Assembly (NCBI GenBank): GCA_900757865.1
Contig: CAAEPH010000051.1
Span: forward strand, 7,858 to 71,857
Source of the DNA: an uncultured Sutterella sp.
Lineage (GTDB): Bacteria; Pseudomonadota; Gammaproteobacteria; Burkholderiales; Burkholderiaceae_F
Length of the DNA: 64,000 nt
Direction: 5' to 3'
Both the position numbers and the translations under genes were made by a program. Shown in pieces: positions 2,747 to 46,699 of this stretch (the first letter of the stretch is position 1; every line of letters begins with the position of its first letter). The notes below the pieces were generated by a model, which searched no databases, was not told where the DNA came from, and saw only the letters and a program-made list of their open reading frames with translations.

Positions 2747-3955
2747 TTACTCATGACGCACCGCTTCAATCGGATCCAGTCGTGCTGCTCGACGAGCAGG
2801 GAAGTAGCCAAAGACAACCCCAGTGAGCGCAGCCACCGAGAACGCCAATATATTAATAAAAGGATCGAAGAGGAAAGGGACTTCCATCAAACTCGAAAGG
2901 AAAATGGATACCCCAAAAGCTAACGCTAGCCCAATAACCCCTCCTAAACCACCAAGCACTAGAGACTCTATAAGAAATTGCAATTGAACTTCTCGTGCTA
3001 ATGCACCAATCGCCAATCGAATCCCTATTTCTCGCGTACGCTCAGTCACTGACACCAACATAATATTCATGATGCCTATGCCACCGACTAGCAAACTCAC
3101 ACCAGCCACAGCAGCCAAAAGAGTGGTCATAATTTTCGTGGTTGATGCCACCTTGGCCGCAATCTCTGCTGTATCAAGAATCTGAAAGTTATCATCATCG
3201 CCGTCAGATAACTTTCGGCGTTCTCTTAAAAGCTCTGTCACTGCTGTTTTTAACCGCTCACGATCTGACAGGGGGTTAATCGAGAGCAACAGAGCACCCA
3301 CTTTTGTGGACCCTAACAGTCGGCGTTGAACCGTGGTAATGGGCATAACCATCAAGTCGTCTTGATCGCCCCCCATTGCGGCTGTTCCTTTGGTTTTCAG
3401 TAATCCAATCACTCGGCAGGAAAAACCTCCCGTACGTATCGTTTGACCAATGACAGGTGCGTGTTCTCCAAAGAGCTCTTTTTGAATCGTGCTACCAATC
3501 ACACAAACTGCAGCTCCAGACAGGATCTCTCCAGCCTCAAAATAACGTCCTTGAGCCAACTCTCGGTTATCAATAGAAAAATAATTATTGTTAGTCCCCA
3601 CCACGCTCGTTTGCCAATTCCGACCATTGCCGATGACAGTCAACGTTTTCGCAGCTTGAGGTGCCACAGCAGTAATACCTGCAATCTGTCCTGTAATGGC
3701 TTCTGCATCAGCCATTTTAAAGTCTGGGGCCCCCACAGCTTGCCCAGGCCCCAATCGCAAACCAGGTCGAACCATTAGTTGGTTATTTCCAAAGGACTCA
3801 ATTTGCATGCGGATAGCCTTAGAGGCTCCGTTGCCTACAGTTACCATCGTAATCACGGCAGCCACGCCAATCACAATACCCAGCACCGTCAACAAACTCC
3901 GCATAGGATTGCGAAAAATTTGGCGTAAAGCCAACAAGAAGGCATTCCCAATCAT
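2747..3955 (-). CDS. ABC efflux permease, FtsX/MacB-type (no fused ATPase)
   Basis: 402 aa with an N-terminal TM helix, a large periplasmic domain and the C-terminal FtsX-type 3-TM bundle. Its start overlaps the ATPase gene stop in an ATGA junction. Confidence 0.85.
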   Translation of the reverse strand: MIGNAFLLALRQIFRNPMRSLLTVLGIVIGVAAVITMVTVGNGASKAIRMQIESFGNNQLMVRPGLRLGPGQAVGAPDFKMADAEAITGQIAGITAVAPQAAKTLTVIGNGRNWQTSVVGTNNNYFSIDNRELAQGRYFEAGEILSGAAVCVIGSTIQKELFGEHAPVIGQTIRTGGFSCRVIGLLKTKGTAAMGGDQDDLMVMPITTVQRRLLGSTKVGALLLSINPLSDRERLKTAVTELLRERRKLSDGDDDNFQILDTAEIAAKVASTTKIMTTLLAAVAGVSLLVGGIGIMNIMLVSVTERTREIGIRLAIGALAREVQLQFLIESLVLGGLGGVIGLALAFGVSIFLSSLMEVPFLFDPFINILAFSVAALTGVVFGYFPARRAARLDPIEAVRHE

Positions 3956-4656
3956 AACTGCACTCCTCGATCATCCAACTCTATACGCCCATCACGGAAC
4001 CGTACGTGCCGATGTGCATATTTCGCCATATCGGGCTCATGTGTAACCAACACTACAGTTATGCCATCTTCTGCATTTAGGGCAGAAAGCAACTCCATAA
4101 TTTCGATACTTCTCGCCGTATCCAAACTGCCCGTTGGCTCATCGGCAAGGAGTAACCTTGGCTTCGTCACAATCGCTCTAGCAATGGCTACACGCTGCTG
4201 TTGCCCCCCTGACAAAGCCGCTGGCGTATGGTCTTCCCAAGACAGTAAACCCACCCTATCCAAAGCCTGCCGAGCCAATGCTCGACGCTCTGCTTTGGGC
4301 AGTCCACGGTAAAGAAGGGGCAACTCGACATTTTCGAGAGCGGTTGTTCGCGCTAGTAAATTAAACCCCTGGAAAACAAAACCAAGGTACTGCCTGCGCA
4401 ATAGTGCTCGCTGATCCCCCGATAGGGATTCCACATGAATACCATTAAACTCGTACACGCCACTCGTAGGACGATCTAGAGCACCAATGATATTCATCAT
4501 TGTCGACTTTCCCGACCCCGAAGGGCCCATAATAGCGACGAACTCGCCCTCATCGATCGAAAGGGAAACGTCTTTAAGTGCTTCAAAAGACGCTTCGGCC
4601 GTTCCATACCGCTTTCGAATATGTTCAAGACGTATTAGATGAGATCCATCAGGCAT
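3952..4656 (-). CDS. ABC transporter ATP-binding protein (MacB/LolD-like ATPase)
   Basis: Walker [10 protein letters not shown], signature [14 protein letters not shown], Walker B LLLADEPTGSLD and H-loop VTHE. The probable start is the internal ATG at 4656 (MPDGSHLIRLEHI) with a GGGAG Shine-Dalgarno (SD) site 8 nt upstream; the ORF-track start is 4689. Confidence 0.85.
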   Translation of the reverse strand: MPDGSHLIRLEHIRKRYGTAEASFEALKDVSLSIDEGEFVAIMGPSGSGKSTMMNIIGALDRPTSGVYEFNGIHVESLSGDQRALLRRQYLGFVFQGFNLLARTTALENVELPLLYRGLPKAERRALARQALDRVGLLSWEDHTPAALSGGQQQRVAIARAIVTKPRLLLADEPTGSLDTARSIEIMELLSALNAEDGITVVLVTHEPDMAKYAHRHVRFRDGRIELDDRGVQL

Positions 4657-4660
4657 GCGA

Positions 4661-5929
4661 TCAGTCTCCCGCTTTACGTTGCTGATCAATAATCACTTGA
4701 TCTGTTTCACGAATCTCTCCTTTGAGGATCTCTGTGTGATTACCATCGGTCAATCCTGTGGTCACCGTAAGCTTCAGAGGTTTCCCATCGCGTAATACGT
4801 AGAGCTCTCGTTGAGTTTCACCGTGAATAACCACGTCCTTCACGGTTTTATTTACTGTTGTTCGATGAGGTGGTCCTGCTTGAATCACGGGCTTTTTCGT
4901 CGCGGCTTTCGTGCTCGGCACAAATCTAAAGGCAGAGTTGGGGACTAACAACACCCCATCACGCTTTGCTGTTTCAATGGTTGCTGAGGCGGTCATGCCA
5001 GGTCGCAATAAATGCTGAGAATTATCCACCGTCATGTAAGCGGTATAAGTCACCACATTTTCATTGGTTGCCGAACCGTAAGCAACCTTGGTAAGGGTTG
5101 CTGGGAAATGCTGATTAGGGAAAGCACTCACTGTGAAATAAACCGGATCACCCTCTTTGACAACGCCTATATCGGCTTCATCCACTAACACTTGCAATTC
5201 CAATTTGCTCAAATCCGTGGCTAATGTCAACAACTGAACTGCCTGTAATGAAGCCGCAACCGCCAAACCAGGTTCAACGGTTCTTGTTAAGACCACACCG
5301 TCAATCGGTGACGCGATACGAGCTTTTGACAAGTCAGTCTCTGCCGTTGTCAAGGTGGCCTCTGCACTCATAATATTGGCCTCTGCCACCGCCACACTTG
5401 CCTTATTAACATCCACCTTGGCTTGCTGTTGATCCAGTTCTGTCTGTGAGGGGGACAAGCCACCTGACCGTTTGTGCAAATCTAGCATTCGCTTGTGGGT
5501 AATCTGACTTTCCTTAAGATTGGCAACGCTTTCCTGTCGCTGAGCCTGGGCGCTCTGTAAGGTCGCTTTTGCGCTCTGCACTTTAGCCTTCAAACTTCTC
5601 GTATCTAAATCGATCAAGGGATCTCCCACTTTAACAGGTGAGTTCACATCCACATAGACCTTTCGAACAATTCCTGAAAGTTCGGAGCCCACCGAAACAG
5701 TCCGCGTTGGTTGCAAAGTGCCATCTGCCGTCACAGTCACATTCAGTGAACCCAAAGTAGCTGGCTCGGTTATATAGTGGAGATCCTGTTGTGCATTTTG
5801 TGCCTTCCAATAGTACCACCCACCAGTTGCCAAACCTACTGCTACCACAATGCCTAAGGTTTTGACATACCATGGACGAGAATGGGTTTGAAGAAAATCG
5901 GGCTTATCGTTTGTACTCTTTTGAGACAT
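4661..5929 (-). CDS. HlyD/MacA-family periplasmic adaptor (membrane fusion protein)
   Basis: Single N-terminal TM helix, coiled-coil region and beta-barrel/lipoyl-like domains typical of membrane fusion proteins. The probable start is the ATG at 5929 (MSQKST), which has an AAGGA SD site; the ORF-track start is 5977. Confidence 0.8.
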   Translation of the reverse strand: MSQKSTNDKPDFLQTHSRPWYVKTLGIVVAVGLATGGWYYWKAQNAQQDLHYITEPATLGSLNVTVTADGTLQPTRTVSVGSELSGIVRKVYVDVNSPVKVGDPLIDLDTRSLKAKVQSAKATLQSAQAQRQESVANLKESQITHKRMLDLHKRSGGLSPSQTELDQQQAKVDVNKASVAVAEANIMSAEATLTTAETDLSKARIASPIDGVVLTRTVEPGLAVAASLQAVQLLTLATDLSKLELQVLVDEADIGVVKEGDPVYFTVSAFPNQHFPATLTKVAYGSATNENVVTYTAYMTVDNSQHLLRPGMTASATIETAKRDGVLLVPNSAFRFVPSTKAATKKPVIQAGPPHRTTVNKTVKDVVIHGETQRELYVLRDGKPLKLTVTTGLTDGNHTEILKGEIRETDQVIIDQQRKAGD

Positions 5930-5952
5930 AGTCTGTCCTTCTTGTTTATCGC

Positions 5953-7350
5953 TTACTGCAACTGACGCGTGGTCCATGGACCACCTAAAACACGATACAG
6001 GGTGACATAAGCATTGCTGACTGCCGCACGATTATCCAAGGCGTTTTCTTGAGCACTAAAATAGTTACGCTCTGCTTCGAGTAGACTTAAGTAATCCCCC
6101 AATCCAGCTTGATAACTATCACGCGAGAGTTGGTATGCTTTCTGTGCGTGCTCTTGGGCCTGTTGAAGAAGAGGAATATTTTGTTCCGTTGTCTGCACAG
6201 TCAATAACGCATTGCCCGTCTCCTCTAGCGCGCTTACTAAGGTATCTCGATAGGACGCCTGAGCCTGTGCTAATTGCGCTTTCGCCTGATCGGAGGCTGC
6301 TGACAATGTGCCCCAATTAAGCACCGGGAGCGACATCGCTGCCACAAGAGCCCCCACCCCCGTTCCCGAAGCTCCTAAAGCACTCACCGTGGCTGCTTGT
6401 GTTCCGATGGAACCCGTAATCTGTAAACTCGGAAAAAAATCTTTTTGAGCTGCCTCCAGTGTTTTGGCTCTAGCGTATAGCGTCTCGATAGCACTACGGA
6501 TATCGGGACGCCTCATTAACACCTCCGCAGGAATAGCTACCGCCAAATGAGCTTTAGGACTTGGCAGATCTGTCCCTTCTCCAAGATGGAGCTCATCGCT
6601 GGGAATCGCTAGCAATCTCGCTAACGCCAATTTGTATTGCCCTAAACTTTGCTGAAGCTTTACCAAACGAACTTTGGCGTTCTCTACTTGCACCTGAGCT
6701 GTTTCCACACTAGCTTGATCTCCTAAACCAGCCTGCGATTTCCAGGCGGCTAGATGAGCCGTTTCTTGGTAATTCTGTAGCTCTTTCTCGAGCAACTGAA
6801 GTTTCAGCTGAGCAGCTCGAAAATTGACATAGGCCGTAACCACCTCAGCAACCATTTGGTCCTTCACTTGCTCCAGTGCCCATGCTTTGGCTAGCTCCTC
6901 AAACAGCGCAGCGTCATATCGCGTGTATTGTGCCCCGGCTAAATTAGCCTCCCATGCAGCACTCATTCCCGCTTTATAGGTCGACAATGTCACACCGGAT
7001 GTGCGGTTTTTTCCGGCTGACGCATCGACGCTAAAAGAAGGCCATAAAACCGAATTTGCGCTGCGGACAGCTGCCCGAGCTATTTGCAGTGAGGCCAAGG
7101 CTTCTTCAACCTTGGGCGAGTTCTGTAAAACTTTCTCTACAAATGTATCGATCTGAGGATCGTTCCACTGTGCCCAAAAGACCTCTGGCGCTACAGTATT
7201 TTTTTCTTCTAGAATAGTTTCCCACTGTTGAGGCAAGACGCTGTCAGCCGTTGTTTGAACATCGGGAGGTGAAATCGCACAACCACCGAGAACAATGCAA
7301 CAACTTCCCATTAGAAACTTCTTCCAGACATCCACAGCATTTCGTCTCAT
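5953..7350 (-). CDS. Outer-membrane efflux lipoprotein, TolC/NodT family
   Basis: 465 aa with signal peptide and lipobox (IVLGGCAISPP). The duplicated helix/beta-strand repeat architecture is that of outer-membrane factor (OMF) proteins. It is the first gene of the OMF-MFP-ATPase-permease operon. Confidence 0.8.
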   Translation of the reverse strand: MRRNAVDVWKKFLMGSCCIVLGGCAISPPDVQTTADSVLPQQWETILEEKNTVAPEVFWAQWNDPQIDTFVEKVLQNSPKVEEALASLQIARAAVRSANSVLWPSFSVDASAGKNRTSGVTLSTYKAGMSAAWEANLAGAQYTRYDAALFEELAKAWALEQVKDQMVAEVVTAYVNFRAAQLKLQLLEKELQNYQETAHLAAWKSQAGLGDQASVETAQVQVENAKVRLVKLQQSLGQYKLALARLLAIPSDELHLGEGTDLPSPKAHLAVAIPAEVLMRRPDIRSAIETLYARAKTLEAAQKDFFPSLQITGSIGTQAATVSALGASGTGVGALVAAMSLPVLNWGTLSAASDQAKAQLAQAQASYRDTLVSALEETGNALLTVQTTEQNIPLLQQAQEHAQKAYQLSRDSYQAGLGDYLSLLEAERNYFSAQENALDNRAAVSNAYVTLYRVLGGPWTTRQLQ

Positions 7351-7541
7351 TGTTCATCCTTTTCTTATCCTATTGCAGCGATGCAAAGGGGCACCGCCTT
7401 GATGGATTATTACGTTTTGCTAGACAAGCTTCATCCCATTTGTAAGACTTCAAAAAGGATGACCCAGTTTGAACCCACAGAACCCTTCAGTTTGTTAATA
7501 TCACCATTATTTTTGTTTTAAATCATAAAATTTGTTCATTT

Positions 7542-8255
7542 ATGTTCAAACATCCTCGCCCGGTACTAGTCATTGACAACGACCTCGAGTTTTTGGCGTT
7601 GATCGTCGATTTCTTAGTGCTCGAGGGATTTCACCCGTATTTCGCTTCCACTTTTCAACAGGCTACAACCGTTTTAGAGTCAACTGAAGTGGATGCCATC
7701 GTCTGTCGAGAAGATTTGCCTGAAGGGAAAACGCTAGATTGGCTAGCAGAGCTCACTCAAAACTCACAAACTCCTCTGCAAAACCTCCCCATCCTTTTCC
7801 TGCTCACAAACCCCAGTAACAAGACCAATGTTGTGCCTAAGGAAAAGTACAACATTAGCAAAGCTTATCAACAGCCTTGGTCATTAAAAAACATTGCGCA
7901 AGACCTGCGACAAATGTTGTCGAAAACACAGACTGGTGTGACTCTTATCGCGAATCGCGAAGTGGGTCCCATCTGTATGGACTTGGTTAAGCGCCAATTA
8001 CGCATCAACGGTAAGCTCGTCCCAGTGACGAATACAGAGTTCACCATTCTGGAAGTTCTGATCAACAAGGTAGGCGTCGCTGTTCCTAAAGACGAAATTT
8101 ATCAAAAGGTGCTTGGACGCTCTATGCACCGTTCAGAGCGCTCGATCGATGTCCATATCTCTGCGTTGCGACATAAAATCCAGACTGTCGATAGCGAAAT
8201 CACAATTTCAGGTATTCGTCGTGTAGGTTATCGATTAATCATTAAACAAAGCTGA
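7542..8255 (+). CDS. Atypical OmpR/PhoB-family response regulator: receiver-like domain lacking the phospho-acceptor Asp, plus a winged-helix DNA-binding domain
   Basis: The C-terminal segment (TNTEFTILEVLINKVGVAVPKDEIYQKVLGRSMHRSERSIDVHISALRHKI...RRVGYRL) is a trans_reg_C winged helix. The N-terminal region aligns to a receiver fold, but the beta3 phospho-acceptor position reads VDAIVCREDLP, with Arg or Glu where the Asp should be. No histidine kinase is adjacent. Confidence 0.7.
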   Translation: MFKHPRPVLVIDNDLEFLALIVDFLVLEGFHPYFASTFQQATTVLESTEVDAIVCREDLPEGKTLDWLAELTQNSQTPLQNLPILFLLTNPSNKTNVVPKEKYNISKAYQQPWSLKNIAQDLRQMLSKTQTGVTLIANREVGPICMDLVKRQLRINGKLVPVTNTEFTILEVLINKVGVAVPKDEIYQKVLGRSMHRSERSIDVHISALRHKIQTVDSEITISGIRRVGYRLIIKQS

Positions 8256-8287
8256 TTTCATCCGCTCAGCGACAACCCCATTAAAGC

Positions 8288-8328
8288 AAAAGCCCAGTTC
8301 TGTTTTTCGCAAAAACTGGGCTTTTTAT
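8288..8328 (+). terminator. Rho-independent terminator after the regulator gene
   Basis: AAAGCCCAGTT...AACTGGGCTTTTTATTT. Confidence 0.55.
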
Positions 8329-8508
8329 TTATTCACATCGTTTTAGTTTCCTCTTTTTCAGCATGTTTTGCAAGAGTGTTTTGACATAAAGGCAATCTAA
8401 GTCAAAGAGAGTCGGCTTTCTTCTCAACCAATGGTTGTAGAGAGGCACAATAGAACTCATACGATTAGGTAAGAACCTAATGAAGCTTTTTTCATTGAGG
8501 GGAACGCT

Positions 8509-10557
8509 ATGAGCAATTATTTAACCAAGGACCTCCGAACCGTCGCTCTTGTAGGACATGGATCTTGTGGAAAAACGTCATTGATTGAGGCAATGCTATA
8601 TCGCTCAGGCATGATCCCCGAACTTGGCAGTGTTGAACGTGGGAATACCATGTGCGACAACGACCCTCTAGAAAAACAAGTTCAACACTCCATCCGCCTA
8701 GCCGTGGCCCACATAGATACAGCCATGCCTGACTTAACGCCCGTGCGTATCCATGTTTTGGATACTCCGGGCTATGCTGACTATTTCGGGCAAGACCTCT
8801 CTGCATTAGATGCCGTCAAATCCGTTTGCGCCGTGATTGACGCGACCAAAGGGGTCGAGTTGCTAACCCGGCGTATGATGGAGGTCGCCAAAGAACGTGG
8901 ACTCTGTCGGATGATCGCCATCAACAAATTCGAAGATCCTAACGTTGACCTTGAAGCCTTGCTCTTGGAGCTTCAAGAAACCTGGGGAGAAGGTGTACTT
9001 CCTATTAATCTCCCTGCTAATGGGCGAAAGATCGTGATTGACTGCTTCGATAAAGACGAAGGTGAAGCCGATATTCGAAGCGTATCTGAAGTGCACAGGG
9101 CCTTTATTGAAAAAATCATCGAAGACGATGACGAAACGCTAGAGCGTTACTTTGAAGAAGGCAGTGTCGACCCAAGAACACTGCACCCTCTTATCACCAA
9201 AGCCTTACGTGAGGGGCGAATCATACCCGTTTGTTTTGTATCAGCTAAAAACCTGATTGGCATCCGCGATTTCATGAAAGTGATTATTCGCCATCTCCCC
9301 AGTCCTGCTGAAGCCAATGACGCATTGTTTGTCACAGCAGACGGCACCCCCTATCGCACGGAACCCGACAAAGACAAACCAGTGATTGCACAAGTCTTTA
9401 AAGTGGTCAACGACCCTTATATTGGGAAAATTGGTATCTTCCGCGTCCACCAAGGCACGATCACGAAGGACTCTAATCTTTACGTAGACAGCCATAAAAA
9501 GAGCTTTAAAGCCGCTCATCCTCTATTGCTCCAGGGGAAAAATACGTCAGAAACCGACAGACTCTCTCCTGGCGATATTGGTGCTCTGGCTAAAGTAGAT
9601 GAACTTCGCTATGGCTCCGTCCTACATTCCGAAGCCGACCTTGACATTCACATGCGCCCCATTAACTTCCCCAAACCCATGTTCGGTGTGGCCGTGAAGC
9701 CAGCGCGTCGAGGTGACGAAGGACGACTCAATGAAGTGTTGGCCAAGATGCTCTCCGAGGATCCTACACTGGCTGTAGACCATGACAAAGTCCTCAATGA
9801 AACGGTCATCCGAGGCTTAACAGAAATGCATGTGAGATCCGTTCTGGATCGAATGAAGGTCGACTTTAACTTGGAGGTCGAAACCGCTACGCCTAGCCTA
9901 CCGTACCGCGAAACCATTGCCGCTCCCGCGGAAGGCCATGCACGACATAAAAAACAAACGGGTGGTACAGGTCAATTCGGCGAAGTCTATTTGCGCATTG
10001 AGCCCTTAGCACGAGGAGAAGGCTTCCAATTCGTTGATGCGGTCAAGGGTGGGGTTATTCCCTTTAATCTGATTCCCGCCGTTGAAAAGGGTGTCCGAGA
10101 AGTCATGGATTCTGGCTATTTAGCGGGCTATCCCTTACAGGATATCCGTGTAACGGTCTATGACGGCAAGAGCCATCCTGTTGATTCAAAAGAAGTCGCC
10201 TTTGTAGCCGCCGCTCGTAAAGCGTTCCTCGACGCCTTATCCAAAGCGTCCCCTCAGATTCTTGAACCGATTGTTCGCATTGACGTAGTAGCGCCTAATG
10301 CGTCCTTTGGCGATATTGCTGGAGACCTCGGGTCACGTCGAGGCCAACTCACTGGGAGCGAAATTGTCAATGATGAAATGACGGAAATTCACGCTTTGGT
10401 TCCTCTTAGTGAACTCGATGGGTATGCCACACGACTTCACGCTCTCACGCAAGGCCAAGGAGCTTGGTCTATGGAGCTCGATAGCTATCAACCCGCTCCC
10501 GCCAGCAAACAGGCTGAATTAGCCTCGCACTATACTCGAGTGGCAGAAGAGGATTAA
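8509..10557 (+). CDS. Elongation factor G-like GTPase (EF-G paralog, about 680-aa short form)
   Basis: G1 motif GHGSCGKTS, G3 motif DTPGYADYF and G4 motif NKFED are present. Domains II to V are EF-G-like (GTGQFGEVYLRIEPL, GYPLQDIRVTVYDGKSHPVDSKE). The length and domain layout match EF-G2-type paralogs. Confidence 0.8.
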   Translation: MSNYLTKDLRTVALVGHGSCGKTSLIEAMLYRSGMIPELGSVERGNTMCDNDPLEKQVQHSIRLAVAHIDTAMPDLTPVRIHVLDTPGYADYFGQDLSALDAVKSVCAVIDATKGVELLTRRMMEVAKERGLCRMIAINKFEDPNVDLEALLLELQETWGEGVLPINLPANGRKIVIDCFDKDEGEADIRSVSEVHRAFIEKIIEDDDETLERYFEEGSVDPRTLHPLITKALREGRIIPVCFVSAKNLIGIRDFMKVIIRHLPSPAEANDALFVTADGTPYRTEPDKDKPVIAQVFKVVNDPYIGKIGIFRVHQGTITKDSNLYVDSHKKSFKAAHPLLLQGKNTSETDRLSPGDIGALAKVDELRYGSVLHSEADLDIHMRPINFPKPMFGVAVKPARRGDEGRLNEVLAKMLSEDPTLAVDHDKVLNETVIRGLTEMHVRSVLDRMKVDFNLEVETATPSLPYRETIAAPAEGHARHKKQTGGTGQFGEVYLRIEPLARGEGFQFVDAVKGGVIPFNLIPAVEKGVREVMDSGYLAGYPLQDIRVTVYDGKSHPVDSKEVAFVAAARKAFLDALSKASPQILEPIVRIDVVAPNASFGDIAGDLGSRRGQLTGSEIVNDEMTEIHALVPLSELDGYATRLHALTQGQGAWSMELDSYQPAPASKQAELASHYTRVAEED

Positions 10558-13782: not shown

Positions 13783-14775
13783 TTAGTGTCTTAACAAGAC
13801 ATCATTCCAATCCCAGCCTTGTTGTTCAGGAATTTTTATCGTCACCTGTTTTTCTGGATAGAGACGATGCCAAGTCTGTGCCAATTGCCAGGCCGCCGCT
13901 TGACCGCTATAACTGGCGTCGTTATCACCAAAAATCACCAGATGTTCTACACATGTAGGCAGAGTGTCTACATTCTGAAATCCATTTAAACACACTGCAC
14001 TCCACGTTGGTACACCAAAGAGTTGCGCTGCCGAAAGCGCTGTTTCAATGCCTTCTGCGACGCCAAGTGTTCGTCCAGGTTCATAGAGCTGAATCCAGCC
14101 GCCTTTAATCGGTCCTCTACAGAGTTTTTTGGGGCTATTCACAGGTGCTTTAGCACCGTCCACACGCAGATAAGTTCGATGAACATTGATCAGGTGGTCT
14201 TCTAGGTCGGTTAGACGAGCCAACATAGCAGGCCAAGCCTCATGAGCGACAACCGTATCGTCTTCCTTCTCCCAGTAGTCTAATAATGGTGAAAATCGTA
14301 AAACATCGCGTTGCAAAAGCTCATCAGACAAGGCAATGCCTCTATGTGCGAGATAAGAAAGTACAGGATTCGTAGCTGTCAGGGTTTTGAGAGTAATCGC
14401 GTGTTCCCATAAGTCATCGATCACCCGACTTGTTACGTCATCCGTTTTTCTATGAGGCCCTCCTTGTTTTGGGCTCACCTCAACATTTAATGCTCTACCC
14501 AAAAAGATGAGAGTTTGCCAAAACGTTTCATGCCGGTATTGGCGGATAAGATCAATCCCATCACCATGCCCGCATCCGCGGCAAAACCAATACCCATCTT
14601 CCGATTTGGGGTAGAAACTAAAACGATCGCGCCCTCCACATAAAGGGCAAGGACGGTTGACTTTTCGAAAGTGAGAGCCATTCATCCCAGCCTGCTCAAA
14701 TAAATGAACCCATTGCCCACGTGCTCGTCTTTTTATTTCCCCTAAAACATCGGAAAATTCTTGCGACATTCCCAC
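13783..14775 (-). CDS. Phage/plasmid P4-alpha-type primase module: primase-helicase zinc-binding ribbon plus Toprim domain, with no helicase domain
   Basis: CPLCGGRDRFSF...CRGCGHGDGIDL matches the Prim_Zn_Ribbon pattern. A Toprim core follows (GVAEGIETALSAAQLFGVPTWSAVCLNG ... LVIFGDNDASYSGQAAAWQLA, the E...DxD motif). Confidence 0.7.
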   Translation of the reverse strand: MGMSQEFSDVLGEIKRRARGQWVHLFEQAGMNGSHFRKVNRPCPLCGGRDRFSFYPKSEDGYWFCRGCGHGDGIDLIRQYRHETFWQTLIFLGRALNVEVSPKQGGPHRKTDDVTSRVIDDLWEHAITLKTLTATNPVLSYLAHRGIALSDELLQRDVLRFSPLLDYWEKEDDTVVAHEAWPAMLARLTDLEDHLINVHRTYLRVDGAKAPVNSPKKLCRGPIKGGWIQLYEPGRTLGVAEGIETALSAAQLFGVPTWSAVCLNGFQNVDTLPTCVEHLVIFGDNDASYSGQAAAWQLAQTWHRLYPEKQVTIKIPEQQGWDWNDVLLRH

Positions 14776-44540: not shown

Positions 44541-44728
44541 TTTCCCTGCTCCACAAAAACACTCCAGAGGTTTCATAAAAAAGACAACAGGGTAATGAGT
44601 GTTTTTCACAGAACCCCTTTAGGTAAGCCTAACTTCTCGGCTCTATTCTCAGCTCGTGCTAACATCCTCTTAAACTCATTTATTTACCTTTTTCTACTCC
44701 TAAAGCGATGCTGTCTTGGCAACTTTCT

Positions 44729-46699
44729 ATGAAGCGACTTCTTCGAAGCTTATTACTGTTTTTCTTAGCCTTAGCCTCTTTAGGATTAATCATTGTGATC
44801 TCCTTGCACTGGCTCATTACGCCAAGTCATGTATATGAACGCATTGAATCATCACTGCAGCAGGAGCTTCACCTTTCGCTCCAGTCCGATGGGCTTCCTT
44901 CCGTAAAACTACTCCCTCGTCTAAGCATTACTTTCCCTCGAGGGCAACTCCGGTCCTTGGACAATCCGCAATGGCAATTGACTTATGCCAAGACTGTCAT
45001 CACAATGCCAACGTTGGCCTATTGGGCAAAAACTCCTAAGTTGACGCAGGTTGATTTTTCTAATGCCACCCTAACCACTGATGAGTCTTTTTCCCTGTCT
45101 AACTCATCCGTCCAGGAGTTTTTAAAGTACCCTATTGAACACATAAATTTACTGAATTTTAATGTGAGAGATAGTGACTGGGCAGCTCAGCACCTCACGC
45201 TCCATTTGGACACCCTTCCCTCGTCTTTACGGCAATTGGATTTTGAGGGAGAACTGCTCATTCACAACCAACGCGTTCACACGCAGCTCAAGGGACTTCT
45301 TCCTGGCGTATCTCAAATGGCTGAGTCCGTGCTCCCAATTGAACAGTTGAAAGGAGAAATGAAAGGGACGAACTGGCAAATCACGATTGAAAAAGGGCGA
45401 ATTCCAGATGCTTTAAACACTCCAGAGCAGTGGCAAGAATTGCAAGGGAACGCACAACACACTCGATTTGGCGAGTTCTTTTGGCAAAGCCAATCTCTTC
45501 TCTGCACATTTAATCGCCTACATCTCCATGACGCACAACTCACGCCTGTCGGAGCAACCGCGGTAAATTGGGGACTCACTCTATCGGGAGATATTGACTG
45601 GAAGGACTCAAGCCTTCTCGTTCCCAAGCTGATTCTCCAAACCTCACCAGACACATCATGGGGTACGGCCTTTCTTTCTGGGTTCGCGAAATATGATCTA
45701 ACAAATCAAGCCTTTAATCTATCTTTATCGGGCCTCTTACAAGATACTCCTGCATCCATTCAATTAGAGCGACAAGGGAGCACTGTATCTCTTGTTTCTC
45801 CTATCCAAGGTCATATTGAAGTCGCTCGATTCCCTGCCGTATCGCCCACATCCGCACTCAAAGCGATCGATATGCTTTGGCCTGAATCTGCAGAGATTGG
45901 CATCAAAATCCATACGCTAGATCAACCTCCCCTCAATAACATAGAGGGAAAACTACGTATTGCTCATAACGAGCTGTCCTCTGTTGCACCTGGTCTACAG
46001 GCTGATATCTTGGGAAAACCTGCCCTACTGACTTTTTCTATCGCTCGCGATGCTCACTGGCAAGCCAATCTAGAAACCTACCATACCGAACTTCAAGCGC
46101 TTGGATGGCCTCTCCCCCTATCGGGCTTAACCAATCTTCACTTAATTGGGCAGGGATACATTGGGAAATCCTCGGATTGGAAAGGAAACTTCCTCATCCA
46201 GAGTGGGCAACTCATAGGAATCAACATCCCAGAGATCGCCCGCCTTCTCAAAGAAGAAATCCCAGTTAACCAACCTCCCGAAGTCTTTACGCACCACTCG
46301 AGAACCTCTTTCCCTAAGGCTCAAGGACACTTGAGCTTCACGACCCAAGAGGGCTGGAAACTGTCTCAACTTGTCATCCAGACATCACAATGGAACCTCA
46401 AAGCCAACGGGGATTTAACCTCTGAAAAAAGCCAAATGACCGGAGAGGTGGACCTTAAGCTCTTCGCCAAAACCGTCCCTTTACCTTTTTCGGTTTCGCA
46501 ATCTAAAGGCACACCTCCTACATGGGTAACTCAGTGGGAGAGAGCAACTGATCTGCTGCAAGAAGAAGCCGAGCAACTTCCTTGGAGTTGGGATCGTGCT
46601 AAACAAAAAGGGAAACGCTGGTGGCAGAACTTTGAACAGTGGCTCTCAACGGTCATTCCGTTTGATCTTTGGATAGAAAAGCTTCAGAGCTTTTTTTAG
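44729..46699 (+). CDS. AsmA-family envelope protein (putative)
   Basis: N-terminal TM anchor (LLLFFLALASLGLIIVISL) followed by a region that aligns in pattern with the E. coli AsmA N-terminus (P-x6-V...L-x-L-x-DG...P-x-LSI). The remainder is a large periplasmic domain. Confidence 0.55.
   Translation: MKRLLRSLLLFFLALASLGLIIVISLHWLITPSHVYERIESSLQQELHLSLQSDGLPSVKLLPRLSITFPRGQLRSLDNPQWQLTYAKTVITMPTLAYWAKTPKLTQVDFSNATLTTDESFSLSNSSVQEFLKYPIEHINLLNFNVRDSDWAAQHLTLHLDTLPSSLRQLDFEGELLIHNQRVHTQLKGLLPGVSQMAESVLPIEQLKGEMKGTNWQITIEKGRIPDALNTPEQWQELQGNAQHTRFGEFFWQSQSLLCTFNRLHLHDAQLTPVGATAVNWGLTLSGDIDWKDSSLLVPKLILQTSPDTSWGTAFLSGFAKYDLTNQAFNLSLSGLLQDTPASIQLERQGSTVSLVSPIQGHIEVARFPAVSPTSALKAIDMLWPESAEIGIKIHTLDQPPLNNIEGKLRIAHNELSSVAPGLQADILGKPALLTFSIARDAHWQANLETYHTELQALGWPLPLSGLTNLHLIGQGYIGKSSDWKGNFLIQSGQLIGINIPEIARLLKEEIPVNQPPEVFTHHSRTSFPKAQGHLSFTTQEGWKLSQLVIQTSQWNLKANGDLTSEKSQMTGEVDLKLFAKTVPLPFSVSQSKGTPPTWVTQWERATDLLQEEAEQLPWSWDRAKQKGKRWWQNFEQWLSTVIPFDLWIEKLQSFF

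Follow-up and report, generated by a model that had tools for sequence, protein, structure and literature searches.

Pseudo-receivers (PsRs) account for about 6% of bacterial receivers and most of the characterised ones are orphans (Bourret et al. 2025, PMC12632262), and according to the same 2025 review the on/off switching of a PsR "remains a mystery". Among REC-OmpR architectures about 2% are aspartate-less, and Arg at the Asp site is found in 63 catalogued sequences (Maule et al. 2015, PMC4395418). HP1043 of Helicobacter pylori works phosphorylation-free as a constitutive dimer (PMC8345958), and ChxR of Chlamydia trachomatis, an atypical OmpR/PhoB regulator, is described as dimerising, binding DNA and activating transcription without phosphorylation (PMC3960148). 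For CosR/CosS of Campylobacter, both states occur within one genus: the kinase and the Asp are kept in C. fetus, whereas C. jejuni, C. coli and C. lari are without the kinase and their CosR has D51 replaced by Asn or Ser (Hwang et al. 2014, PMC3938529). Here we analyzed a regulator gene of this kind at positions 7542-8255 of a 64,000-nucleotide stretch of contig CAAEPH010000051.1 from an uncultured Sutterella sp., hereafter the window. As judged from sequence and synteny, the ancestor of this gene, in the same place on the chromosome, encoded the response regulator of a CpxRA-like two-component system, and the kinase of that system was deleted. We regard it as probable that this Cpx-like origin and the nature of the product, a non-phosphorylatable and phosphorylation-independent winged-helix regulator, both hold.

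The regulator and its phosphorylation pocket

The gene and its two domains are as follows.

7542-8255, + strand: OmpR/PhoB-type regulator gene with a predicted pseudo-receiver (aspartate-less) N-terminal domain, 237 amino acids (aa) (open reading frame, Pfam, fold, population copies)
7542-7916, + strand: receiver-like (beta-alpha)5 domain, aa 1-125 (alignments, AlphaFold2 secondary structure, dN/dS, the ratio of non-synonymous to synonymous substitution rates)
7947-8252, + strand: winged-helix DNA-binding domain, aa 136-237 (Pfam Trans_reg_C, conservation across kinase-less and kinase-linked orthologues)

The open reading frame (ORF) starts with ATG, and 34 public contigs encode an identical protein (P0179). 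Pfam recognised the winged helix (Trans_reg_C, PF00486, aa 158-232) at E 9.4e-17 with 61.3 bits against a cut-off of 26.2, and the match to Response_reg (PF00072, aa 8-97) was sub-threshold, with 21.9 bits against the gathering cut-off of 30.2. No curated NCBIfam model reached its cut-off for this protein, the top ones being PhoB (70 bits) and CpxR (68 bits). The AlphaFold2 (AF2) model, calculated from a 27-sequence alignment, has a mean predicted local distance difference test score of 82 and assigns beta1 to residues 7-11, alpha1 to 15-27, beta2 to 31-35, alpha2 to 38-47, beta3 to 52-56, alpha3 to 64-74, beta4 to 84-88, a short, low-confidence alpha4 to 100-103, beta5 to 105-110 and alpha5 to 115-129, followed by a linker and a winged helix with the beta-sheet, three-helix and wing layout. 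When the PDB was searched by fold using Foldseek, the full-length OmpR/PhoB regulators PrrA, VanR, PhoP, MtrA and KdpE were matched at E 2e-14 to 1e-12. With a winged helix and a linked (beta-alpha)5 receiver fold both recognised in sequence and model, the protein is assigned to the OmpR/PhoB family.

The register of the pocket was determined by HMMER alignments to PrrA and RegX3 and by MAFFT alignments to the canonical orthologues described below, and the two agree. In the former, 'DAIVCREDLP' of the window protein pairs with 'DAIVLDINMP', and the aligned pairs include 'VLVIDND'/'ILIVDDD', 'AIVCREDLPEG'/'IMVLDVMMPGK', 'LFLLTN'/'VLMLTA' and 'AYQQPW'/'YVPKPC'. The conserved Pro at D+4 (Pro60) anchors the alignment, and therefore Arg56 is in register with the phospho-Asp; in the AF2 model it is the final residue of beta3, that is, its C-terminal end. 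An earlier reading of the window from the sequence alone (hereafter the original prediction) had placed Arg at the phospho-acceptor site, and the alignments, the Pro60 anchor and the modelled end of beta3 all confirm it. AlphaFold modelling, which that reading had named as a check, likewise has Arg56 and no conserved Asp at the C-terminus of beta3. The five catalytic positions read as follows.

7575-7577: DD1, Asp12, kept
7578-7580: DD2 (second acidic residue), Asn13, lost
7707-7709: D (phospho-Asp), Arg56, lost
7806-7808: T (conserved Thr, end of beta4), Thr89, kept
7872-7874: K (conserved Lys, end of beta5), Gln111, lost

Three of the five residues are gone (the phospho-Asp, the second acidic residue and the Lys), and the pocket defect is thus not confined to the Asp, as had been supposed. 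The receiver fold, Asp12 and the Thr in LLT (Thr89), which the original prediction had pointed out, were found in place, but its 'Lys near SKAY' was not the catalytic one: in the alignments, this Lys corresponds to the first Asp in the beta5 signature 'GADDY', which is lost in the window regulator, and the true Lys site before the conserved Pro ('KP') reads Gln111-Pro112 ('QQPW'). Of the marks of a canonical receiver, the phospho-Asp, a complete acidic pair and the Lys are therefore missing and the Thr is present, and even the Thr89 site is Ile or Leu in sister kinase-less lineages. By the definitions of PMC12632262 and PMC4395418, alignment and model make the window receiver a pseudo-receiver as well as an aspartate-less receiver.

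Orthologous loci, loss of the kinase and divergence of the regulator

A search of 5.8 billion proteins returned one relative at 97% identity (P0001) and a group at 36-39% identity with a fully canonical receiver, having the N-terminus MFKHPRP and the motif VPKDEIYQKVLGR in common. A genome scan assigned the members of this group to Sutterella, namely to S. wadsworthensis, S. parvirubra and a number of metagenome-assembled genomes. When 1.84 billion cluster representatives were searched exhaustively with HMMER, there were no intermediates between 38% and 97% identity, by which the Asp-to-Arg change could have been dated. The best distant matches included several without the Asp, having Ser (P0030, P0031, P0037), Asn (P0033, P0034) or Thr (P0036, P0041) instead, and in P0040 His-His replaces the acidic pair; one cluster member of P0031 at NCBI is a Sutterella sp. 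'response regulator transcription factor'.

The gene order UvrA-MFS-SSB-MacB-ABC-MFP-OEP <> regulator-(kinase)-EF-G-(DUF502)-AspRS, with the pump genes on the minus strand and the regulator on the plus strand, is common to 22 loci. In the canonical ones, a kinase of ~460 aa with HAMP-HisKA-HATPase_c starts within about 30-50 bp after the regulator; that of S. wadsworthensis is encoded at 10746-12104 of L008. All regulators with DD/D/T/K precede a CpxA-like kinase (L001, L003-L008, L011, L012 and L022), and L009 and L010, where the contig ends inside the kinase gene, are counted with them among the 12 canonical loci. The regulators of the other 10 (window, L002, L013-L018, L020 and L021) have only the Trans_reg_C match, with 2-4 of the 5 active-site positions substituted, and none of these loci, whose receivers Pfam does not recognise, has a CpxA-like kinase after the regulator. 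L013-L018, L020 and L021 represent the same syntenic locus, the winged helix alone being recognised by Pfam. The association of pocket and kinase is without exception in this sample: canonical with kinase in 12 loci, degenerate without kinase in 10.

The top curated models for the canonical Sutterella pair were CpxR and CpxA. P0002 scored 208 bits with CpxR (NF008199 equivalog, cut-off 341 bits), and the kinase scored 219 bits with the Legionella-type CpxA (cut-off 800) and 183 bits with the E. coli-type (cut-off 486). Because all the scores are below the curated cut-offs, we call the pair Cpx-like and not a proven Cpx orthologue; the 68 bits of the window protein are also below the 341 bits of the equivalog.

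In the window, the place of the kinase is taken by a short spacer.

8256-8508, no strand: 253-bp spacer, a deletion scar where canonical orthologues carry the CpxA-like kinase (synteny, tblastn)
8282-8333, + strand: intrinsic terminator, a 12-bp G+C-rich stem and then a T-run (RNAfold -18.7 kcal/mol, z = -5.2, 0 of 200 shuffles as stable)

That no histidine kinase is encoded nearby had been predicted, and searches of the whole window bear this out: Pfam found neither HisKA nor HATPase_c in all 26 ORFs of at least 318 aa plus four shorter ones, and tblastn with an orthologous kinase against the 64 kb gave nothing better than E 0.68. Fragments of the cognate kinase were not detected either, when two orthologous kinases were compared by tblastn with the window and all the kinase-less loci, where the only matches were unrelated phosphonate-binding kinases in L013, L014 and L018 (E about 1e-4). 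Since the same query detects an unrelated kinase elsewhere, which serves as a positive control, the sensitivity of tblastn was sufficient. Both the window and L002 are without the kinase and without the inositol monophosphatase gene of some relatives, and the spacer has no remnant of either. The regulator is thus an orphan, with no partner kinase in its operon or neighbourhood, where the orthologous loci have one. The terminator was assessed by RNAfold, a pattern scan limited to loops of at most 8 nucleotides (nt) having missed it, and according to the alignment it is kept in L002. Because this strong terminator ends it, the regulator gene is monocistronic.

In three lineages of the window's clade, the kinase-less regulator is separated from the inositol monophosphatase gene by a block of three genes (L013 11287-15557, L014 10957-15121, L018 10926-14901), which encode a flavoprotein that binds FAD, a response regulator of the NarL/GerE type and a kinase whose periplasmic domain is phosphonate-binding. 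L017 is without the block and encodes the same regulator protein as L018, indicating that the block is mobile or was recently gained or lost.

EF-G, AspRS, MacB, the ABC ATPase and the MFS protein were concatenated (2,365 columns) for a neighbour-joining tree, with support taken from 300 bootstrap replicates. A clade of the window, L002, L013, L014 and L017 (the window clade) was supported at 100% and its sister was the kinase-bearing Sutterella group (98%), while L015 and L020 formed a distinct kinase-less clade (100%). In none of the 300 replicates did the kinase-less loci fall on one side of a split. Because they never group, and because a degenerate regulator could not plausibly give rise to a canonical pair again, there were at least two independent losses of the kinase. 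The members of the window clade have 'LP(D/E)G..(L/V/F)(D/T/A)WL', 'RR(V/I/Q)GY' and a one-residue deletion in common, and those of the other kinase-less clade a three-residue deletion in beta5 and 'RGVGY'; the two clades thus decayed differently, which fits independent histories.

The loss of the kinase is accompanied by a marked difference in divergence. In kinase-less pairs of the window clade, the regulators are 32-44% identical where EF-G is 87-91%, whereas in kinase-bearing pairs they are 63-87% identical where EF-G is 81-92%. By domain, the mean identity is 34% for the receiver and 42% for the DNA-binding domain in the kinase-less window clade, compared with 74% and 64%, respectively, in kinase-bearing lineages; the receiver is the better-kept half when the kinase is present and the worse-kept half in the window clade. 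The former Asp site within the window clade reads R, S, S, N, N, S. A meaning of Arg56 as such, as a selected feature, was rejected, since the same kinase loss also gave rise to sister lineages with Ser or Asn at this position. The site is simply unconstrained, and Arg there is not an innovation driven by selection.

Selection was tested by comparing the window with the 97%-identical copy in L002, at a synonymous divergence (dS) of about 0.14 with 20.5 synonymous and 10.5 non-synonymous changes. The dN/dS was 0.144 for the whole gene (P = 1.7e-7 against neutrality), 0.21 for the receiver-like domain (P = 0.006) and 0.08 for the DNA-binding domain (P = 3e-5), and that of the neighbouring genes was 0.02-0.065. 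In addition, none of the 11 species-level variants is truncated, and R56 is present in each. The regulator is intact and under purifying selection, and it is not decaying. The DNA-contacting residues of the recognition helix (R200, D203, V204, H205, S207, R210 and K212) and of the wing (R226, G229 and Y230) are kept in all the lineages. In the receiver-like domain, the positions kept across all kinase-less lineages are D23, L25, L27, E28 and F30 in alpha1/beta2, and also P112. The surfaces constrained after the loss of phosphorylation are helix alpha1 and parts of alpha5, and not the pocket or the alpha4-beta5 face.

The upstream element and candidate targets

The genes on both sides of the regulator had been described, in the original prediction, as a divergent efflux operon and an EF-G paralogue, and Pfam and NCBIfam gave the same assignments (OEP/MFP/ABC/MacB and EF-G). 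The features of this region are listed below.

7491-7525, + strand: conserved block of the pump/regulator spacer, TTTGTTAATAT (7491-7501) and TTGTTTTAAATCA (7513-7525), two TTGTT repeats 21 bp apart (alignment)
2747-7350, - strand: divergent tripartite efflux operon, MacAB-TolC-like, the likeliest regulatory target (Pfam, NCBIfam)
5953-7350, - strand: NodT/TolC-type outer-membrane factor
4661-5977, - strand: MacA-like adaptor
3952-4689, - strand: ABC ATPase
2747-3955, - strand: MacB-type permease
8509-10557, + strand: EF-G paralogue, conserved downstream neighbour and alternative candidate target (Pfam, NCBIfam)

The block at 7491-7525 is the sole conserved one in the 191-bp spacer between pump and regulator and is located 17-51 bp upstream of the regulator ATG. 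TTGTT occurs in it at 7492-7496 and 7513-7517, and once more at 7532-7536. Its general form, TTTGTTAA(G/C/T)AT, about 10 nt and TTGTTyyAAATCA, is seen in kinase-bearing and kinase-less loci alike, being kept in 11 of the 12 aligned loci (the kinase-linked Sutterella loci, the window and L002) and in all seven further ones (six kinase-less loci and L019, where the kinase status is not established). It is missing in L021, where the pump no longer adjoins the regulator. From its sequence, the block could be an extended -10 promoter (TGnTAAGAT-like) or, with its repeats spaced by two turns of the helix, a binding site of the regulator, or it could serve as both, and TGTTAATAT may be the -10 element of the regulator gene. 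A standard -35/-10 pair was rejected, as the 21-bp spacing of the repeats does not fit it, and an extended -10 alone is plausible. A sigma-70 promoter scan of 7200-8600 gave one minus-strand match, which is not above chance. Copies of TTTGTTAAKAT in the window amounted to two matches against 3.0 expected by chance, the other one, with one mismatch, being inside the MacB coding region. Since the number of copies is not above chance, the window alone is uninformative on the regulon.

A second block, (C)GTAACAAACTTTTGC, is kept upstream of the regulator gene in kinase-bearing loci only and is degenerate or absent in the kinase-less ones. In L003-L011, it is located about 20-35 bp upstream of the TTTGTTAA element (in L008 at about 9910-9925), and the corresponding site of the window is 7466-7489. 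(C)GTAACAAACTTTTGC pairs with TTTGTTAAC as an imperfect inverted repeat. The GTAACAAACTTTTGC block may be a site dependent on the phosphorylated regulator that was dispensable after the loss of the kinase. No Shine-Dalgarno sequence is recognisable before the regulator ATG in any lineage (window 7510-7541 and the equivalent sites), suggesting weak or unusual translation initiation of the regulator.

The divergent arrangement of pump and regulator is kept in 21 of the 22 loci, L021 being the exception. Because of this arrangement and the retention of the DNA-contacting residues, we tentatively link the regulator to the pump: it is quite possible that the regulator binds the conserved element and controls both itself and the MacAB-TolC-like operon. 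Within this operon, the longest ORFs of the ABC ATPase (245 aa, from a TTG) and the adaptor (438 aa) extend at their starts into the genes upstream of them, and the true starts are probably further downstream, the near-identical L002 calling 234 and 422 aa. The outer-membrane factor (5953-7350, - strand, and its orthologues) evolves fast, at 32-52% identity where the MacB permease is at 74-87%; together with the regulator, this exposed component of the pump makes up the fast-evolving pair of the locus. In L021 (6000-10000), which has diverged most among the kinase-less lineages, the MacAB-TolC-like operon and the MFS gene are not beside the regulator; their place is taken by genes for an amidohydrolase and a phosphoribosyltransferase and by one of the NMT1 family, and the order regulator-EF-G-AspRS is kept. 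The EF-G paralogue scored 813 bits with NF009891, above the cut-off, and was below the cut-off of TIGR00484 (both NCBIfam).

Two further genes of the window were noted. At 13783-14775 (- strand), beside AspRS, the window has a gene whose product combines a Zn-ribbon primase domain with DUF7146 and Toprim, and this gene is conserved in L002, L015 and L022; in L016 the Zn-ribbon primase/Toprim gene is in two ORFs, possibly by a frameshift. The 663-aa ORF at 44708-46699 (+ strand) matched no Pfam family at E<=1e-5 and is the only large ORF of the window without a domain assignment.

Proposed history and comparison with known systems

The history that we propose is as follows. The ancestor would have had a regulator with all five catalytic residues and a histidine kinase encoded directly downstream, as S. 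wadsworthensis and S. parvirubra have. In the clade of the window, the kinase gene was deleted, and afterwards the pocket of the regulator decayed, with Arg56, Asn13 and Gln111 as substitutions and 'GADDY' lost, so that the switch by Asp phosphorylation would be gone. The regulator was retained with its DNA-contacting residues unchanged, and DNA binding without phosphorylation most likely persists. It would control its own promoter and the divergent MacAB-TolC-like operon, and its activity would be set by the abundance of the regulator or by some ligand or partner. The lost pocket residues, the deletion of the kinase and the purifying selection support the original prediction that this is an atypical member of the OmpR family and an orphan working independently of phosphorylation, as far as sequence can tell.

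Several points weigh against this history. Phosphorylation independence, DNA binding and dimerisation are all deduced from sequence, and the alpha4-beta5-alpha5 face, which is the dimerisation face of canonical family members, is heavily substituted, with alpha4 modelled at low confidence. The DNA-binding domain, too, has diverged more quickly than where the kinase is present, and its specificity may therefore have shifted. A kinase may be encoded elsewhere in the genome, the census having covered the 64-kb window. As for the targets, the upstream element may be only the promoter of the gene (an extended -10 of the TGnTAAGAT type) and not an operator, it is absent in the pump-proximal half of the spacer and upstream of EF-G, and L021 keeps the regulator though the pump operon is not adjacent, which weakens the link to the pump.

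Other explanations were considered for the state of the protein. The regulator might be a decaying remnant that became functionless after the loss of the kinase and is drifting to a pseudogene, as the very fast divergence in the kinase-less clades, the lack of constraint on the former active-site residue (R, S, N or T) and a dN/dS 2-6 times that of the neighbouring genes would suggest. However, a dN/dS of 0.144 is well under 1 (P = 1.7e-7), and constraint is also seen for the receiver-like domain taken separately (P = 0.006); no kinase-less lineage, however deeply diverged, lacks an intact full-length ORF, although the kinase was lost independently at least twice; and the DNA-contacting residues are kept and 11 of 11 population variants are full length, so that a remnant is very improbable. 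Continued control by phosphorylation, with a distant kinase or acetyl phosphate modifying Glu57 or Asp58, is improbable as well. These two residues immediately follow Arg56, and Asp12 and Thr89 are kept, but the pocket has also lost the second acidic residue, which binds metal, and the catalytic Lys, Pro60 at D+4 sets the register, and Glu57/Asp58 are not kept in sister lineages, which read SSL, YQH, NTM, SRL and SKL; moreover, the cognate kinase is deleted with none within 64 kb, and the receiver is under the Pfam cut-off. We give hardly any credence to the idea that Arg56 itself is regulatory, either by arginine phosphorylation or by a positive charge locking the 'on' state, so that the Arg would be the key adaptive change. 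Maule et al. 2015 (PMC4395418) raised both possibilities, Arg at the phospho-Asp site is uncommon (63 sequences) and R56 is invariant in the 11 species-level variants, whereas the closest sister lineages with the same kinase loss have Ser or Asn, the site is unconstrained across the clade, and an arginine kinase was not seen in the window.

With regard to the target, the EF-G paralogue is found next to the regulator in all the loci reaching that far, L021 included, and might be the main target in place of the efflux operon. This is unlikely, as a strong terminator lies between the two genes, the TTGTT element is not found upstream of EF-G, other genes intervene in the kinase-bearing genomes and in most of the window's clade, the conserved element is also absent in L021, and the adjacency is accounted for by inherited gene order. 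A further proposal, which we hold to be doubtful, is that the fast divergence is not mere relaxation and that the receiver-like domain, once freed, gained new lineage-specific inputs from a ligand or a protein partner; a candidate driver would be co-evolution with the fast-evolving outer-membrane component of the pump (32-52% identity). The preferred explanation remains a Cpx-like response regulator that lost its kinase and was retained as a DNA-binding protein, presumably acting without phosphorylation.

Compared with known systems, the locus is a further example of the known pseudo-receiver class and not a new class or mechanism. It has in common with ALRs and PsRs (PMC4395418, PMC12632262) a receiver fold without the phospho-Asp, further loss of the pocket, orphan status and an OmpR-type winged-helix output, and there is no difference in kind, except that the origin of the window lineage can be read from syntenic kinase-bearing relatives. 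The link to CpxR/CpxA is by way of the canonical Sutterella orthologue, the CpxR and CpxA models being those that P0002 and its kinase match best; the difference is that these scores are under the cut-offs and that the window protein, at 68 bits with CpxR, is without a kinase. HP1043 (HsrA) is likewise an orphan OmpR/PhoB-type regulator with a highly degenerate receiver, so the likeness suggested in the original prediction stands as functional analogy; close relationship does not, as HP1043 is not in the PDB phmmer matches at E<=0.01 and its structure (2hqr) is 42nd by Foldseek. ChxR also gave no match in the PDB sequence search (E<=0.01), and it differs in that the window protein has a traceable canonical ancestor and kinase at the locus. 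Membership of the HP1043, ChxR or CosR families was rejected, the family fold being shared with no sequence-level relationship; for CosR the match is by fold only (8uvk and 8uvx, Foldseek ranks 28-34), without sequence-level orthology.

The automated label "response regulator transcription factor" given to these proteins wrongly implies control by a kinase. The value of the locus is in providing a clean, replicated before-and-after series for how pseudo-receivers arise, by which the constrained receiver surfaces, the persistence of DNA specificity and the rewiring of adjacent pump expression become testable. In this respect, CosR/CosS is the closest evolutionary parallel, and as in the Sutterella regulators the receiver of CosR is more variable than the DNA-binding domain (PMC3938529). 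The two differ in extent: CosR homologues are about 80-90% similar across the kinase-bearing and kinase-less groups (PMC3938529), whereas the Sutterella regulators have diverged to about 35%, the receivers of the kinase-less ones being 21-33% identical to kinase-linked orthologues and 28-43% identical among themselves, and, unlike in the CosR comparison, the loss of the kinase in Sutterella is replicated, having occurred at least twice.

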